Of a stretch of DNA of 64,000 bases, positions 9,157-18,870 are shown in pieces (the first letter of the stretch is position 1; every line of letters starts with the position of its first letter). The notes beneath the pieces are model-generated. The model worked only from the letters and a program-made list of their open reading frames with translations, ran no database searches and was not told the origin of the DNA. Where the stretch lies: contig NZ_CP047901.1 of NCBI RefSeq assembly GCF_009936135.1, positions 631,927 through 695,926 of the forward strand, read 5' to 3'. Source of the DNA: Candidatus Chazhemtobacterium aquaticus (GTDB taxonomy: Bacteria > Patescibacteriota > Microgenomatia > UBA1400 > Chazhemtobacteraceae). Both the position numbers and the translations under genes were made by a program.

Positions 9157-10053
9157 ATGACTGAAAAGACGGCCATTGCGCTTAAAACCGAATCCCACCA
9201 AGACAGCACTATCGTTATTACTGCAACGATTGATGCCAATCTAGTTGCCAAACACCAAAATGACTCCATGCTTCACTTAGGTCACGATCTTACCATCAAG
9301 GGTTTTCGTCGTGGCAAAGCTCCTTTAAACGTCCTAAAAGAACACCTCGATCCTCAAAAGGTCACCAACCACACCCTTGAACACATTTTTCCAGAAATTA
9401 TCAAGGAGGTTTTCAAACAGCATCAACTAAAAATCATTGGCAACCCCACCTTAACCGCCGTGACCACTCCAGACCAAGCCCCCTGGACCGTTACTCTTTC
9501 TTTTCCTCTTCTTCCAGAGTTTGAAATCAAAGGATACCAGGACAAACTTAAAAAAGCCTTCAAAGACCTTGAAGCCAAAACTAAAAAGGATGCCAACTCT
9601 AAAACTAAATCCGATGACAAAACTCAAACTCCAAAAGATCCTCAATCAGAAAAACTCACCGCCTTACTCGATACCCTACTTAAGGAAATCGAGCTAACCG
9701 TTCCCGAGTCTCTTATAACCCAAGAAGTTAACCAGTCCTTGGTTCGTCTTTATGACCACACTCAGGCTCTGGGAATCACCGTCGACCAGTACCTAAAATC
9801 ACTTGGTAAAACTGCCGAGCAGATCAAACAAGACTATCACCAAGCCGCAACCGAAAATCTAAAAATCGAGTTTATCCTAGACCGCATTGCCACCGATCTT
9901 GATATTGCAGTAAATGACGACGAAATCACTGACATGATCAATGCCTCCGGTGATCAACAGGCCAAAGACCAACTCAATCATCCCGAACAAAGAGCCTACG
10001 TCAAGGGTATTATCAAGAAACGAAAAACCATTGACGCTCTTCTCAATCTTTAG
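9157..10053 (+). CDS. tig: Trigger factor-like chaperone (short form, ribosome-binding N-domain, no PPIase domain)
   Basis: The N-terminal region carries the TF signature GFRRGKAP (compare GFRxGKxP in the ribosome-binding domain). An extended -10 (tgtgtataat, 9137-9145) lies about 12 nt upstream of the ATG, and there is no SD. Confidence 0.6.
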   Translation: MTEKTAIALKTESHQDSTIVITATIDANLVAKHQNDSMLHLGHDLTIKGFRRGKAPLNVLKEHLDPQKVTNHTLEHIFPEIIKEVFKQHQLKIIGNPTLTAVTTPDQAPWTVTLSFPLLPEFEIKGYQDKLKKAFKDLEAKTKKDANSKTKSDDKTQTPKDPQSEKLTALLDTLLKEIELTVPESLITQEVNQSLVRLYDHTQALGITVDQYLKSLGKTAEQIKQDYHQAATENLKIEFILDRIATDLDIAVNDDEITDMINASGDQQAKDQLNHPEQRAYVKGIIKKRKTIDALLNL

Positions 10054-10652: not shown

Positions 10653-10657
10653 CTTTG

Positions 10658-10731
10658 TGGACCCGCCTGGAATCGAACCAGGGACCTCTGCAATGTCAAT
10701 GCAGCGCTCTAACCGACTGAGCTACGAGTCC
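10658..10731 (-). tRNA. tRNA-Val (anticodon GAC)
   Basis: Reverse complement GGACTCGTAGCTCAGTCGGTTAGAGCGCTGCATTGACATTGCAGAGGTCCCTGGTTCGATTCCAGGCGGGTCCA, 74 nt, anticodon loop TTGACAT. Confidence 0.9.
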
Positions 10732-11547: not shown

Positions 11548-11835
11548 ATGACCAAATCAGCTACTTCTCCAAAGGCTTTACGGTTACAAGCCAAAAGTCC
11601 AAATAACGTGCGTGTTAACGACGAACAACAACGGCTTTCTTACAACAGAGCTTTTTTCTTGAATCTAGTCGGTGGTATCGGCTGGGCATTAGGTATGACC
11701 GTCGGCTTTGCCCTTTTAGTTTCTCTCATCTCGCTTGTCTTCTCTTACCTTGGCGGTCTACCCTTAATCGGCAACTTCTTCGCCACCATCATCAACCACA
11801 CCCTTACCGCTATTGAAAGCAGACCTAGCCTATAA
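11548..11835 (+). CDS. Hypothetical small membrane protein
   Basis: 95 aa ORF with a C-terminal hydrophobic segment (two transmembrane helices). No recognisable motif. Confidence 0.4.
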   Translation: MTKSATSPKALRLQAKSPNNVRVNDEQQRLSYNRAFFLNLVGGIGWALGMTVGFALLVSLISLVFSYLGGLPLIGNFFATIINHTLTAIESRPSL

Positions 11836-11840
11836 TCACT

Positions 11841-11869
11841 TTGACAAAATTATTAAGCAGATCTAAAAT
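11841..11869 (+). promoter_or_regulatory. Sigma70-type promoter TTGACA-N17-TAAAAT driving the thrS leader
   Basis: Consensus -35 at 11841-11846 and -10 at 11864-11869. The predicted start site coincides with the leader ATG at 11876, giving a leaderless transcript. Confidence 0.55.
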
Positions 11870-11875
11870 CAGCCT

Positions 11876-11920
11876 ATGTCTACCACTACCCGCACCACTA
11901 CTACCATCCTCCCGCTTTAA
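11876..11920 (+). CDS. Thr-rich leader peptide MSTTTRTTTTILPL (attenuator leader of thrS)
   Basis: 14-codon ORF with 8 Thr codons (ACC/ACT), located between the promoter and the terminator hairpin directly upstream of thrS. Confidence 0.6.
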   Translation: MSTTTRTTTTILPL

Positions 11921-11944
11921 TCGGGTTGGTTAGACTGCTTAACT

Positions 11945-11970
11945 AACCTCCCGATAGGGAGGTTTTTTTA
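11945..11970 (+). terminator. Intrinsic terminator/attenuator hairpin AACCTCCC-GATA-GGGAGGTT followed by T7
   Basis: An 8 bp GC-rich stem plus a U-tract, 45 nt upstream of the thrS ATG. A second copy of CCTCCCG lies inside the leader ORF at 11908-11914. Confidence 0.65.
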
Positions 11971-12014
11971 TACCTACAACCAAGCAGCAATATAAAGTAA
12001 TATACAAACAGACC

Positions 12015-13820
12015 ATGTCAAACAATAACTCAAAATTCAATCAGCTCTCACCAGAAGATCAACATCTATATCAAATCCGTCACACCGCCGAACATGTCTT
12101 AACTCAAGCCATGATTAATCTCTATGGACCAGACAAGATCATTATGGCCATGGGTCCAGCTACAGAAGACGGTTTCTACTTCGATTTTGACTCACCTCAA
12201 GACTTTAAACTATCTGAGTCAGATTTCCCCGTCATTGAAAAGGAAATGCAACGCCTTATCGATCTTGACCTTAAGCTTGAATCAATTACCGTCTCGGCTG
12301 ATCAAGCCAGAGACCTGTTTAAAAAAAACCCCTACAAGCAAGACTGGATTACTCAAGCCGAAAGCAACCAGCTACCCATTACCCTCTACTACACTGGTAA
12401 GGACAGCGAAAATGAGTTTGTTGATCTTTGTTCCGGCCCCCATGCCGATAGTACTGGACAGATTGGAGCTTTCAAACTACTTTCGCTAGCTGGCGCCTAC
12501 TGGCATGGTGATTCCAATAACAAAATGCTAACCCGTGTTTATGGCACCGCCTTTTCATCTCAAGAAGAACTAGAACAGTTCATCGAAAAACGTCAGGAAG
12601 CTGAAAAACGAGACCATCGAAAGTTAGGGCTTAAATTTGATCTCTTCACCTTCTCCGATCTTATCGGCCCAGGTTTTCCCCTGTACACCCCCAAGGGCTG
12701 CCTACTTCGTCAACTCATTAATGGATATGTTGAACAACTCCAAACTCAACAAGACTACCAACAAGTCTGGACTCCCCAGGTAGCCAAAGCCGAGCTGTTC
12801 GAAACCTCTGGACACTACGACAAATACAAAGACGACATGTTTACCATTCACTCTCACTACAGCGACGATGAGCTGTTCTTAAAACCAATGAACTGTCCTC
12901 AACACACCCAAATCTTTGCTAGCAAACCCAGAAGCTATCGTGACCTACCCATTCGTTACACCGACTTCGCCATGCTCTATCGTGACGAAAAACCAGGAGA
13001 GCTCTCAGGGCTAGCCCGAGTTAGAGCTTTCTCCCAAGACGACTGCCATGTTTTTTGCAGCGAAGAACAGGTCGATGACGAAGTAGATGTCATGCTTTCC
13101 ATGACTAAAGAGGTCATGCGCACCTTCGGACTTAAATATCGCTACCGTCTTTCCACCAGAGACCCAAACACCCCAGAAAAATACTTAGGTGATCCCAAAA
13201 TCTGGGACAAAGTAGAAAAATGGGCCGTCAAAATCATGGAAAGAAACCACATCGAATACTACGATGGAGTAGGGGAGGCCGCCTTTTATGCTCCTAAAAT
13301 GGACTTAATGGCTACCGATGCCTTAGGTCGAGAGTGGCAACTTTCCACCGTTCAGATTGACTATGTTCAACCACAGCGTTTTGGTCTTAAATACACCGCC
13401 GCTGACGGTAGTGATCAAACCCCAATCATGGTTCATAGAGCCATCATTGGCTCCTTCGAGCGCTTCCTTATGATTCTAATCGAGCACTTCTCAGGCGCTT
13501 TCCCAGTCTGGCTCTCACCAGTTCAGGTAGCTGTCCTACCCGTTTCTGACAAGTCCAATGACTATGCCCAAGAAGTCTTCTATGAGCTTAAGAACAACGG
13601 TATAAGGGTCGAGTTTGACCAATCCGACCAATCATTGGGCAAAAAAATCAGAAATGCTGAGGATCAAAAATACCCCTACATGGTTATAGTCGGTGAAAAA
13701 GAAGCCAAAGATAGCACTATCTCTGTTCGCCAAAGAGGTGAACAAGACCTGGGTAGTATGGATCTGACTCATTTTTTGTCCCTCTTGAAGGAAAAAATTG
13801 AATCTAAAGCTTTAAATTGA
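12015..13820 (+). CDS. thrS: Threonyl-tRNA synthetase (lacks the N-terminal TGS domain; editing, catalytic and anticodon-binding domains present)
   Basis: 601 aa. The N-terminus aligns with the ThrRS editing domain (HTAEHVLTQAM), and class II motifs and the zinc site (CPQH) are present. Followed by infC-rpmI-rplT as in the classic operon. Confidence 0.9.
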   Translation: MSNNNSKFNQLSPEDQHLYQIRHTAEHVLTQAMINLYGPDKIIMAMGPATEDGFYFDFDSPQDFKLSESDFPVIEKEMQRLIDLDLKLESITVSADQARDLFKKNPYKQDWITQAESNQLPITLYYTGKDSENEFVDLCSGPHADSTGQIGAFKLLSLAGAYWHGDSNNKMLTRVYGTAFSSQEELEQFIEKRQEAEKRDHRKLGLKFDLFTFSDLIGPGFPLYTPKGCLLRQLINGYVEQLQTQQDYQQVWTPQVAKAELFETSGHYDKYKDDMFTIHSHYSDDELFLKPMNCPQHTQIFASKPRSYRDLPIRYTDFAMLYRDEKPGELSGLARVRAFSQDDCHVFCSEEQVDDEVDVMLSMTKEVMRTFGLKYRYRLSTRDPNTPEKYLGDPKIWDKVEKWAVKIMERNHIEYYDGVGEAAFYAPKMDLMATDALGREWQLSTVQIDYVQPQRFGLKYTAADGSDQTPIMVHRAIIGSFERFLMILIEHFSGAFPVWLSPVQVAVLPVSDKSNDYAQEVFYELKNNGIRVEFDQSDQSLGKKIRNAEDQKYPYMVIVGEKEAKDSTISVRQRGEQDLGSMDLTHFLSLLKEKIESKALN

Positions 13821-17460: not shown

Positions 17461-17682
17461 AAAATGAAAATGAAGATTTATACCACTGGGCAAATAGCCA
17501 AAAAATACCATGTTAACTTAAAACAAATTAGCAACTGGTATAAAAAACTTGTTCGCTCAAAACACATAGTATCTCTAAGAAACCCGGGTACAATCAAGAT
17601 TACAGGTGACCAACACGGTAGATACGGACTTCCCTCAAGTCTAGTCAAACATTTCCCTAATACACCACCCAAAAACTCTTGA
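17461..17682 (+). CDS. Possible small helix-turn-helix protein (low confidence)
   Basis: A 72-84 aa ORF in the ABC-F/pheS divergent intergenic region. The segment TTGQIAKKYHVNLKQISNWYKKL resembles transposase or excisionase-type HTH motifs. No SD, and the ORF could be spurious. Confidence 0.25.
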   Translation, partial: KMKMKIYTTGQIAKKYHVNLKQISNWYKKLVRSKHIVSLRNPGTIKITGDQHGRYGLPSSLVKHFPNTPPKNS

Positions 17683-17706
17683 CATTTCAGTTTGTCGTCA
17701 TATAAT
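17679..17706 (+). promoter_or_regulatory. Consensus promoter TTGACA-N16-TATAAT for the pheST leader
   Basis: -35 at 17679-17684 and -10 at 17701-17706. The leader ATG at 17717 makes the transcript near-leaderless. Confidence 0.6.
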
Positions 17707-17716
17707 CTCTCCCTAC

Positions 17717-17785
17717 ATGACAATCAAAATGTCACACGCGAGAAGCAACCACTCAACCGATCCTATCTTTTTTAATCGGCACTAG
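17717..17785 (+). CDS. pheST leader peptide MTIKMSHARSNHSTDPIFFNRH (tandem Phe codons near the 3' end)
   Basis: 22-codon ORF immediately after the promoter. TTT TTT lies at 17768-17773. The stop codon overlaps a GGGAGG (17785-17790) complementary to the terminator 5' arm. Confidence 0.5.
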   Translation: MTIKMSHARSNHSTDPIFFNRH

Positions 17786-17816
17786 GGAGGTTGCTTTTGG
17801 CGTTTTTAGACCCAAA

Positions 17817-17841
17817 CCTCCCCACAAGGGAGGATTTTTTT
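17817..17841 (+). terminator. Attenuator terminator CCTCCC-CACAA-GGGAGG followed by T7
   Basis: 6 bp GC stem plus a U-tract, 25 nt upstream of the pheS ATG. Upstream GGGAGG at 17785-17790 can pair alternatively with CCTCCC as an antiterminator. Confidence 0.65.
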
Positions 17842-17865
17842 ATTCTCTTAAGCTAGAATTCATCC

Positions 17866-18870
17866 ATGGACGATCTCGAAATCATCAAAAAACAAGCTAC
17901 TCAGCAAATCCAGTCTGCCAAGGATCTTGAAGCCTTAGACAAACTTCAAACTCAATATCTTGGCCGCAAAGGTTTAGTCAATCAATACTTAAGCTCGCTT
18001 CCTAAAGAAGCCCTAAAAAGCCAGGGTCGTCTCATCAACCAAACCAAACAATACATTGACCAGCTTATTGCCAAACGCCAAAAATCTCTTCAGCAGGTCC
18101 AACAAGAGATCGATGTCACCATACCAGGCATTCTTCCACCCATCGGCCACCTTCACTTAATTACCCAAACCATTAAAGAAATCGAGGATATCTTCACCAA
18201 ACTAGGCTTTGTCAGGCGTCGTTACCCAGAAGTAGAGACTGACTGGTACTACGCCGAAGGCCTAAACATCCCCAAAGACCACCCCGCCCGAGATGACCAA
18301 GAAACCTTCTATATCAATCCAGAAGTTGTTCTAACCGCCCATACCAGCAATGGCCAGTTACGAGAGATGGAGTTATTAAAAAAACCTCCCATCAAAATGA
18401 TTAACATTAGTAAGACCTATAGACGTCAGGCCAGTAATACCCATAGTCCCATGTTCCACCAGTTCGAGGGTTTAGTCGTAGACAAAGATATAAACATCAC
18501 TCACCTTATCGGTGTCAGCAACTTCTTTGTTCAGTCATACTTTGGCTCTGACCGTCAAGTCAGACTTCGTCCTCACCACTTTCAGTTCACCGAGCCCAGC
18601 TTCGAAGTCGACATCAACTGCCACCTTTGCAAGGGTAGGGGAGAGTTAAATGGAAAAAGCTGCCCCGTCTGTAAAGCTGGTTGGCTAGAGCTTGGCGGCG
18701 CCGGCATGGTCCACCCTCAGGTCTTAAAAAACGGTGGTATCAATCCCGATCGATTTACTGGCTTCGCTTTCGGTTGGGGGATAGAACGTCTCATCATGAT
18801 GAAACATAACGTTACCAACAACCTACGAGATCTCTATACCAGCGATCTTCGCTTTCTCAATCAGTCATAA
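17866..18870 (+). CDS. pheS: Phenylalanyl-tRNA synthetase alpha subunit
   Basis: 334 aa with class II motifs (...FRPHHFQFTEPSFEVDI..., GAGMVHPQVL), immediately followed by pheT. Confidence 0.9.
   Translation: MDDLEIIKKQATQQIQSAKDLEALDKLQTQYLGRKGLVNQYLSSLPKEALKSQGRLINQTKQYIDQLIAKRQKSLQQVQQEIDVTIPGILPPIGHLHLITQTIKEIEDIFTKLGFVRRRYPEVETDWYYAEGLNIPKDHPARDDQETFYINPEVVLTAHTSNGQLREMELLKKPPIKMINISKTYRRQASNTHSPMFHQFEGLVVDKDINITHLIGVSNFFVQSYFGSDRQVRLRPHHFQFTEPSFEVDINCHLCKGRGELNGKSCPVCKAGWLELGGAGMVHPQVLKNGGINPDRFTGFAFGWGIERLIMMKHNVTNNLRDLYTSDLRFLNQS

Follow-up and report, generated by a model that had tools for sequence, protein, structure and literature searches.

Results

The leader upstream of thrS

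In the 64,000-nucleotide stretch of the Candidatus Chazhemtobacterium aquaticus genome analysed here (hereafter the window), thrS, the gene of threonyl-tRNA synthetase (ThrRS), is preceded by a short threonine-rich open reading frame (ORF) that lies between a promoter and an intrinsic terminator. The gene order around this leader is tig, DUF5660, tRNA-Val (on the opposite strand), truB, DUF5665, the leader, thrS, infC, rpmI and rplT, with pheS-pheT farther downstream, and the genes that follow thrS encode IF3, L35 and L20. Bacteria of the candidate phyla radiation (CPR, Patescibacteria) are uncultivated, have very small genomes and are without most biosynthesis, and to our knowledge next to nothing is known about their gene regulation. 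Ca. C. aquaticus Ch65 is one of them, an ultra-small member of Microgenomates whose genome of 801 kb encodes neither complete pathways of amino-acid biosynthesis nor amino-acid transporters that can be recognised (PMC7143001). The ThrRS encoded in the window is QHO63637.1 of this organism (100% identity). The features of the leader and its gene are the following.

11841–11869, + strand: sigma-70-type promoter, TTGACA (11841–11846), a 17-nt spacer and TAAAAT (11864–11869), with 11 of 12 consensus matches
11876–11920, + strand: leader ORF MSTTTRTTTTILPL with its TAA stop (11918–11920); the ATG lies 6 nt past the -10 hexamer, and the transcript is predicted to be leaderless
11882–11905, + strand: regulatory Thr codons, ACC ACT ACC (11882–11890), then CGC, then ACC ACT ACT ACC (11894–11905), conserved among strains
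11878–11892, + strand: region 1a, GUCUACCA and CCCGC within the Thr-codon stretch, the predicted partner of region 2 on a ribosome-free leader (anti-antiterminator)
11908–11914, + strand: region 1b, CCUCCCG, which repeats the 5' arm of the terminator and lies at the ORF end; possible partners are CGGG of region 2 or GGGAGG, the 3' arm of the terminator
11920–11935, + strand: region 2, AUCGGGUUGGUUAGAC, whose first base is the last base of the stop codon; possible partners are region 1 or region 3
11943–11955, + strand: region 3, CUAACCUCCCGAU; the predicted antiterminator 2:3 joins 11920–11925 with 11950–11955 and 11928–11933 with 11943–11948
11945–11969, + strand: intrinsic terminator 3:4, AACCUCCC-GAUA-GGGAGGUU (11945–11964) with T7 (11963–11969), found by a strict hairpin-plus-T-run scan and by folding
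12015–13820, + strand: thrS, ThrRS, 601 aa, first gene of thrS-infC-rpmI-rplT; Pfam tRNA_SAD, tRNA-synt_2b and HGTP_anticodon

Most of these elements had been pointed out in an initial annotation of this DNA, and we found the promoter TTGACA-N17-TAAAAT, the strong terminator with U7 before thrS, the second copy of CCUCCCG at 11908–11914 and the complementarity between AUCGGG (11920–11925) and CCCGAU (11950–11955) as they had been described. The 14-codon Thr-rich ORF starting at 11876 is also there, with one correction: its codons (ATG TCT ACC ACT ACC CGC ACC ACT ACT ACC ATC CTC CCG CTT TAA) include seven for Thr and not eight. The terminator hairpin is GC-rich and has 8 bp, and it is followed by U7 and lies 45–50 nt before the ATG of thrS (12015) and 110 nt downstream of the DUF5665 gene (11548–11835).

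In several respects the arrangement goes beyond what chance would give. Seven Thr in nine codons occur nowhere else in the six frames of the window, the leader being the sole such stretch. Promoters with at least 11 of 12 matches are found at two sites only, before the thrS leader and before the pheS leader, a number which by count alone is not above the shuffle expectation (1.8). The strict scan for hairpins followed by a T run detected seven sites in the window, and those lying purely in a 5' leader, that is, 20–55 nt ahead of a gene start, are found only before thrS and pheS. A promoter bypassing the terminator is unsupported, as the segment between the terminator and thrS contains poor -10-like hexamers only (TAATAT ending 11 nt before the ATG). 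The thrS leader has the anatomy of a classical attenuator, a promoter-proximal ORF rich in the cognate codon followed by a terminator before the gene.

Folding of the leader RNA and the predicted switch

When the RNA of 11876–11975 was folded without constraint, the minimum-energy structure (-27.5 kcal/mol, z = -3.65 against shuffles) paired the Thr-codon region 11878–11892 with 11922–11935 and also contained the terminator; the energy of the helix 1:2 is -13.3 kcal/mol. The antiterminator 2:3 (AUCGGG/CCCGAU and GGUUAG/CUAACC) has an energy of -16.1 kcal/mol (z = -4.4), a value reached in none of 300 shuffles in which the upstream half was shuffled, and it is thus predicted to be more stable than the terminator (about -13.9 kcal/mol); folding of this segment, which had been proposed together with the initial annotation, came out in favour of two competing structures. 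The computed direct-path barrier from the antiterminator to the terminator fold is about 12 kcal/mol.

We modelled a stalled ribosome as a mask over the mRNA during folding. The terminator had a probability of 0.94 on the ribosome-free leader and of 0.95 when the ribosome occupied the stop codon; the value was 0.02 for a ribosome stalled on the first Thr codon and 0.49 for one stalled on codon 9, the penultimate Thr codon in the second run. For a stall at codon 10, the minimum-energy fold contains the 2:3 hairpin and lacks the terminator. For a stall at an early Thr codon, it includes the pairings CCUCCC/GGGAGG and AUCGGG/CCCGAU, the very two that had been named as mutually exclusive with other foldings of the leader.

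Conservation of the Thr leader

To compare the leader among close relatives we used ten strain-level sequences (L081 and L161–L169), whose ThrRS proteins cluster with that of the window at 90% identity. In none of them is a Thr codon lost or a pairing segment altered. The -10 box reads TAAAAT or TAGAAT, codon 2 encodes Ser or Phe and codon 6 Arg or His; the spacer and the last pair of the terminator also vary, and within the Thr codons there is one synonymous change from ACT to ACC. In L082, whose ThrRS is 77% identical to that of the window, the promoter is TTGACA-N17-TAGAAT, followed after 8 nt by the ATG of the leader ORF MKLIVRTTTTTLPR (ATG AAA CTA ATC GTC CGC ACC ACC ACT ACC ACC CTC CCG CGA TAG), and this ORF ends in CUCCCG as the end of the window leader ORF does. 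The terminator is kept in L081 and in L082, where it takes the form ACCUCCCGACAGGGAGG plus a U run. Between the Thr leader ORF and the antiterminator/terminator of L082 we also observed a near-perfect hairpin of about 100 nt (2278–2375, GCUUGUGAUUUUUUAACGAAAAA...UUUUUUGCAGUUAAAAUCACAAGC), an insertion without counterpart in the window.

Across the phylum we surveyed 139 usable thrS loci from species-representative genomes and metagenomes, which correspond to 120 distinct upstream regions. Mini-ORFs with at least 4 Thr in 6 codons were found on the sense strand at 24 of the 139 loci and on the antisense strand at none, and Thr was the most enriched amino acid in the mini-ORFs of the survey. With five further Thr-leader loci found by eye, the total after deduplication is about 25 of the 120 distinct upstream regions. 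A count that does not depend on ORFs gave the same polarity, with runs of at least 4 ACN codons occurring 18 times in sense and 0 times in antisense, and 16 of the 18 have an in-frame ATG upstream. The third positions of these runs vary (C 27, T 21, A 10, G 1), and the stop codon usually comes 1–5 codons past the run, most often 2. A terminator-like hairpin lies between the ORF and thrS at 20 of the 24 loci, typically 35–55 nt before the gene, and at 16 of 22 loci the segment after the stop codon pairs with the 5' arm of the terminator better than shuffles do (P ≤ 0.02; z between -2.4 and -5.3). The Thr leader ORFs of the relatives commonly have C-rich ends.

Pairs could not be counted in a MAFFT alignment of the 17 leader types because its registration was too poor, and we used a subfamily of six sequences. 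In this subfamily 90.9% of the cells of the antiterminator helix are paired, compared with 41–60% when the partner was slid, two pairs show compensatory changes, and the covariation score was reached by none of 500 shuffles. A covariance model built from these six sequences, among which the window is not included, finds the window element along its whole length at 11882–11971 (30.9 bits, E = 3.5e-4 in a search space of 718 kb), and the same model also recovers other Thr leaders. The comparison of thrS upstream regions showed both the Thr run, kept in the strains and L082, and a covarying stem, the two points that had been suggested for comparison when the leader was first noticed.

Several variants of the leader were seen in the survey. 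The Thr leaders of the relatives often end with Pro and the stop codon (…TNP*, …TTP*, …TYP*; L006, L007, L038, L067, L096, L101, L135, L151), and in these the final codons, rich in C, pair with G-rich bases following the stop to give a small hairpin whose loop contains the stop codon, as in CCC-GUAA-GGG. This hairpin may be a by-product of the pairing requirement, or it may be a signal for slow termination. At two loci (L038, 2761–2839; L067, 2778–2854), a tRNA-Val(GAC) ends 1–2 nt before the ATG of the Thr leader with no -10 box between them, and 3' processing of the tRNA might there yield a leader mRNA with a leaderless 5' end. At two other loci (L035, 120–428; L145, 2116–2424), the Thr run (…KVFTTTTI* and …KIFTTTTV*, respectively) is the C-terminus of a conserved ORF of 102 aa and is followed by an antiterminator and a terminator, with no separate mini-ORF. 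The 102-aa ORF had no Pfam match at the curated threshold, with weak sub-threshold matches mostly to helical families. At these loci the sensor may be the tail end of an upstream protein gene.

Predicted leaderless start of the leader transcript

The initial annotation had also suggested that the leader ORF is translated from a leaderless mRNA in a genome that seems to lack Shine-Dalgarno (SD) sequences, and features of the window agree with this. A TATAAT-like hexamer (5–6 matches) ends 5–8 nt before the start codon in 13 of its 54 genes, among them those at 9157, 40743, 50505, 53935 on the minus strand and 7270 on the minus strand, compared with about 1.6 such hexamers in other 5-nt bins, and in 11 of the 13 this distance is exactly 6–7 nt. 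Any SD-like 4-mer is found upstream of 13 of the 54 genes only. Among the relatives, a -10-like hexamer ends 6–9 nt before the leader ATG at about 15 leader-bearing loci. Leaderless transcripts seem to be common in this genome, and because start-proximal -10 hexamers are enriched and SD motifs are few, the predicted leaderless leader ORF would fit the apparent mode of translation initiation.

T-box-like leaders of thrS

A search of the whole window against Rfam at the gathering score returned tRNAs only. Within 11700–12100, matches at E ≤ 10 were limited to weak, terminator-driven ones to Phe_leader and RNAI; the Phe_leader match, at 18 bits against a gathering score of 55, is caused by the terminator. 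Thr_leader (RF00506) had no match at E ≤ 10 in 11700–12100 and none at the gathering score in the window, and the T-box (RF00230) had no match at E ≤ 10 in 11700–12100. The UGGNACC core is absent from the window leader.

In the survey, a T-box-like core, RUGGNACCNC, was found at 21 thrS loci in sense and at 0 in antisense, and it is mutually exclusive with Thr leaders. Loci having both the core and a terminator include L113 (2344–2472), L003, L019, L028, L042, L084, L088, L112, L114, L152 and others. At L113 the T-box model matched with E = 5e-9, below the gathering score, and ACC-A was recognised by eye at the specifier position, whereas L088 gave no T-box match despite its core motif, and a scan of 20 relatives' loci at the T-box gathering score gave no match. 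The assignment of these leaders to the T-box is tentative, and judging from their sequences they may be reduced or divergent T-boxes. About 89 of the surveyed loci remain, with neither a Thr leader nor a T-box-like core.

Leaders of pheS

The pheS gene of the window (ATG at 17866) has a perfect promoter, TTGACA-N16-TATAAT (17679–17706), followed by a conserved RNA motif (17738–17801) and a terminator, CCUCCCCACAAGGGAGG plus U7 (17817–17840). The motif has an invariant helix of 13 bp, formed by GCGAGAAGCAACC and GGUUGCUUUUGGC, and inner helices that covary. It occurs at 11 distinct loci of Patescibacteria, ahead of either pheS or a gene-pheS operon, and has no Rfam match; it may be an undescribed cis-regulatory RNA for pheST. 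We considered a mini-ORF before pheS of the window (17717–17785, MTIKMSHARSNHSTDPIFFNRH, with two Phe codons) as a Phe leader peptide, but this is doubtful because the ORF overlaps the RNA motif and its reading frame is not kept in relatives. TAGAAT at 17854–17859 lies past the terminator of the pheS leader. It ends 6 nt ahead of the ATG of pheS, a spacing of the leaderless type, and is a possible second pheS promoter that would bypass the attenuator.

In other Patescibacteria, Phe-rich mini-ORFs (MKLFTFTSFFFRI, MQLFTFTSFFFRI, MILTIFSTNFFFRV, MLHISIQSVVFFFTFN and others) lie about 50–160 nt upstream of pheS (L088, L107, L117, L005, L017, L070, L069, L137). Each is followed by a G-rich segment and a terminator, and some are weakly matched by the Thr-leader covariance model. 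From their sequences they look like Phe leader-peptide attenuators acting on pheST.

Strand composition and the neighbouring tRNA gene

The tRNA-Val gene of the window, for the same tRNA as at L038 and L067, lies at 10657–10731, on the strand opposite to the thrS leader. The + strand of the window (1–64000) shows an extreme G/C disparity (19,033 C against 9,363 G), with a GC skew between -0.20 and -0.47 in all 4-kb bins. The skew follows the DNA strand and not the coding strand, the coding-strand skew being -0.27 for genes on the + strand and +0.40 for those on the - strand. The extreme GC skew of this organism has been published previously (PMC7143001).

Discussion

Proposed mechanism

We consider that the thrS leader is very probably a classical ribosome-mediated leader-peptide transcription attenuator, which senses the charging of tRNA-Thr from a leaderless transcript and acts on thrS. 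Attenuation of this kind had been the central proposal of the initial annotation, and it is supported by the masked folding, the comparison of the antiterminator with shuffles, the conservation and the about 25 loci in Patescibacteria. The same attenuator probably also sets the expression of infC-rpmI-rplT according to the supply of charged tRNA-Thr.

The series of events that we infer would run as follows. Transcription would start at or beside the ATG at 11876, and a ribosome would load onto the leaderless mRNA. When Thr-tRNA is plentiful, the ribosome would reach the UAA at 11918–11920, and its footprint would mask region 2 (11920–11935); region 3 would then pair with region 4, and at the resulting hairpin with U7 the polymerase would terminate some 45 nt ahead of thrS. 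Under a shortage of Thr-tRNA, the ribosome would stall on the Thr codons, most effectively on the last ones (11897–11905), concealing region 1 including CCUCCCG and leaving region 2 exposed. The exposed region 2 would pair with region 3, and the antiterminator, forming first and held by the barrier of about 12 kcal/mol, would permit read-through into thrS. With no ribosome on the leader, the 1:2 pairing and the terminator would form, so that the default state would be off.

Some points weigh against attenuation in this form. Stalls at codons 1–7 lead at equilibrium to an extended hairpin (-24.9 kcal/mol) in which CCUCCC of the leader is paired to GGGAGG, and the GC helix of this fold still abuts the U tract and might itself cause termination. 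With the ribosome at codon 10 or later, the equilibrium prefers the terminator (P about 0.8), so that read-through would require the 2:3 hairpin to be kinetically trapped. The sample used for covariation comprises six sequences and is small, and about 80% of the sampled relatives are without a Thr leader. Furthermore, we know of no study on coupling of RNA polymerase and ribosome or on leaderless initiation in CPR bacteria. Because stalls at codons 1–7 yield the extended fold abutting the U tract, the effective sensor codons would be the last Thr codons, where a ribosome should cover CCUCCCG and leave region 2 free.

Alternative explanations

Other explanations of the locus can be considered. 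The hairpin with U7 could merely terminate the DUF5665 gene, the Thr mini-ORF being a chance product of an A/C-rich strand and thrS being transcribed from elsewhere. The terminator indeed lies 110 nt downstream of that gene, and ACN triplets are favoured by the high A and C content of the + strand, but this explanation is hardly credible, as the promoter with 11 of 12 matches follows the upstream stop codon and precedes the hairpin, the run of 7 Thr in 9 codons is unique in the window, and the complementarity of regions 2 and 3 is far above that of shuffles. In addition, the Thr codons are conserved in frame in the strains and L082 while neighbouring codons vary, and in-frame Thr runs precede thrS repeatedly, in many lineages whose upstream genes differ, but never in antisense. 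It is also conceivable that translation of the ORF does control the terminator, but in response to the speed of translation or the availability of ribosomes in general, reporting any translational stress with no specificity for tRNA-Thr. Any well-placed stall would have an equal structural effect, many related leaders end with Pro-stop or other C-rich codons able to slow termination, and the operon also encodes the general translation factors IF3, L35 and L20. The recurring feature, however, is specifically a Thr run before thrS, with Thr as the top enriched amino acid (24 sense, 0 antisense), and Phe-rich leaders occur before pheS in the same phylum; these two observations argue for cognate specificity, and we regard a general sensor as very unlikely.

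In another explanation the leader would be an untranslated RNA switch, in which the ACC/ACU repeats pair with tRNA-Thr or bind ThrRS in the manner of a T-box or of the thrS operator, and the ORF would be incidental. ThrRS of E. coli does autoregulate via tRNA-like operator hairpins, and the T-box-like core exists in thrS leaders of other Patescibacteria, L113 matching the T-box model at E = 5e-9. The window leader, on the other hand, has neither the UGGNACC core nor, at E ≤ 10, a match to the T-box or another regulatory Rfam family for such an RNA switch. The Thr triplets always share their reading frame with an ATG located at the predicted start site and with a stop codon that abuts region 2, and the synonymous variation at third positions is that of a coding, not a pairing, constraint. 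As Thr leaders and T-box-like motifs also exclude each other, an untranslated switch is extremely unlikely in our view.

Relation to known attenuators

In E. coli, the leader peptide thrL has an SD-led ORF and controls the Thr biosynthetic operon. The thrS leader resembles it (RF00506) in its short ORF dense in Thr codons, the mutually exclusive 1:2, 2:3 and 3:4 pairings, the terminator and the proposed sensing of charged tRNA-Thr, and differs from it in that a synthetase gene is regulated and the transcript is predicted to be leaderless; homology in sequence or structure is absent, RF00506 giving no match at E ≤ 10. The pheST genes of E. coli are controlled by the leader-peptide attenuator pheM, which is SD-dependent and senses Phe, and thrS of E. 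coli is under translational control by ThrRS binding to an operator. Like pheM-pheST, the thrS leader is a probable attenuator ahead of a synthetase operon, and it lies in the same conserved cluster thrS-infC-rpmI-rplT-pheST, but it would sense Thr and not Phe and is predicted to be leaderless, unlike the SD-dependent pheM. The thrS leader would thus work like thrL and pheM and is not a homologue of the Rfam Thr_leader. In Firmicutes, thrS is usually controlled by a T-box (RF00230), which binds the uncharged tRNA directly and without translation. The window leader shares with the T-box the principle that thrS transcription would be raised, through competition of terminator and antiterminator, when tRNA-Thr is uncharged, and unlike it has no T-box core and no Stem I.

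The initial annotation called attenuation of a synthetase gene an unusual regulatory solution, and here it went too far, as such leader attenuators are known or proposed not only in E. coli but also in Streptomyces, Bacillus and Deinococcus. Leader-peptide attenuators are known or proposed on trpS and leuS of Streptomyces (PMC1262725), and His leaders precede hisS paralogues in Bacillus (PMC2965389). Fourteen leaderless leader peptides are present in Deinococcus deserti before synthetase genes (e.g. cysS) and biosynthesis genes (PMC4007540), and Streptomyces lividans has leaderless leaders before alaS, leuS, trpS and thrS (PMC8079986). As in these Streptomyces and D. deserti leaders, the ORF of the thrS leader lies at the predicted 5' end of the transcript, contains cognate codons and precedes the matching synthetase gene. 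The thrL-thrS leader of S. lividans, MKRVRPFLETTPGFVPAR, has two Thr and no clear terminator (PMC8079986), whereas the thrS leader described here has seven Thr codons, a hairpin with U7, a supported antiterminator and conservation in many genomes. It also differs from the leaders of Actinobacteria and Deinococcus in belonging to Patescibacteria/CPR.

Our full-text searches of the literature for leader peptides at synthetase genes of Patescibacteria and for T-boxes or riboswitches of CPR found none, and the genome paper (PMC7143001) does not mention attenuators, Shine-Dalgarno motifs or leaderless mRNAs. A threonine leader attenuator has apparently not been reported previously in CPR, yet it is recurrent there.

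Implications

A wider generalisation, which we offer tentatively and consider possible but not probable, is that leaderless cognate-codon leader peptides are a general and repeatedly reinvented form of synthetase control in Patescibacteria, which interchanges with T-box-like leaders at the same loci (Thr leaders at thrS, Phe leaders at pheS) and in some cases uses transcripts processed from tRNA-Val or the tail of the 102-aa ORF. In organisms devoid of amino-acid biosynthesis they would then be the main amino-acid-sensing circuitry, and they would be direct evidence that transcription and translation are tightly coupled in CPR cells.

The thrS leader leaves the textbook picture of attenuation unchanged and provides a very clear example of it in a poorly understood phylum. 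The occurrence of either Thr leaders or T-box-like leaders at one locus offers a natural example of a sensor swap on a retained terminator. If the leader works as a ribosome-mediated attenuator, CPR cells would monitor tRNA charging, couple transcription to translation and regulate genes via leaderless initiation.

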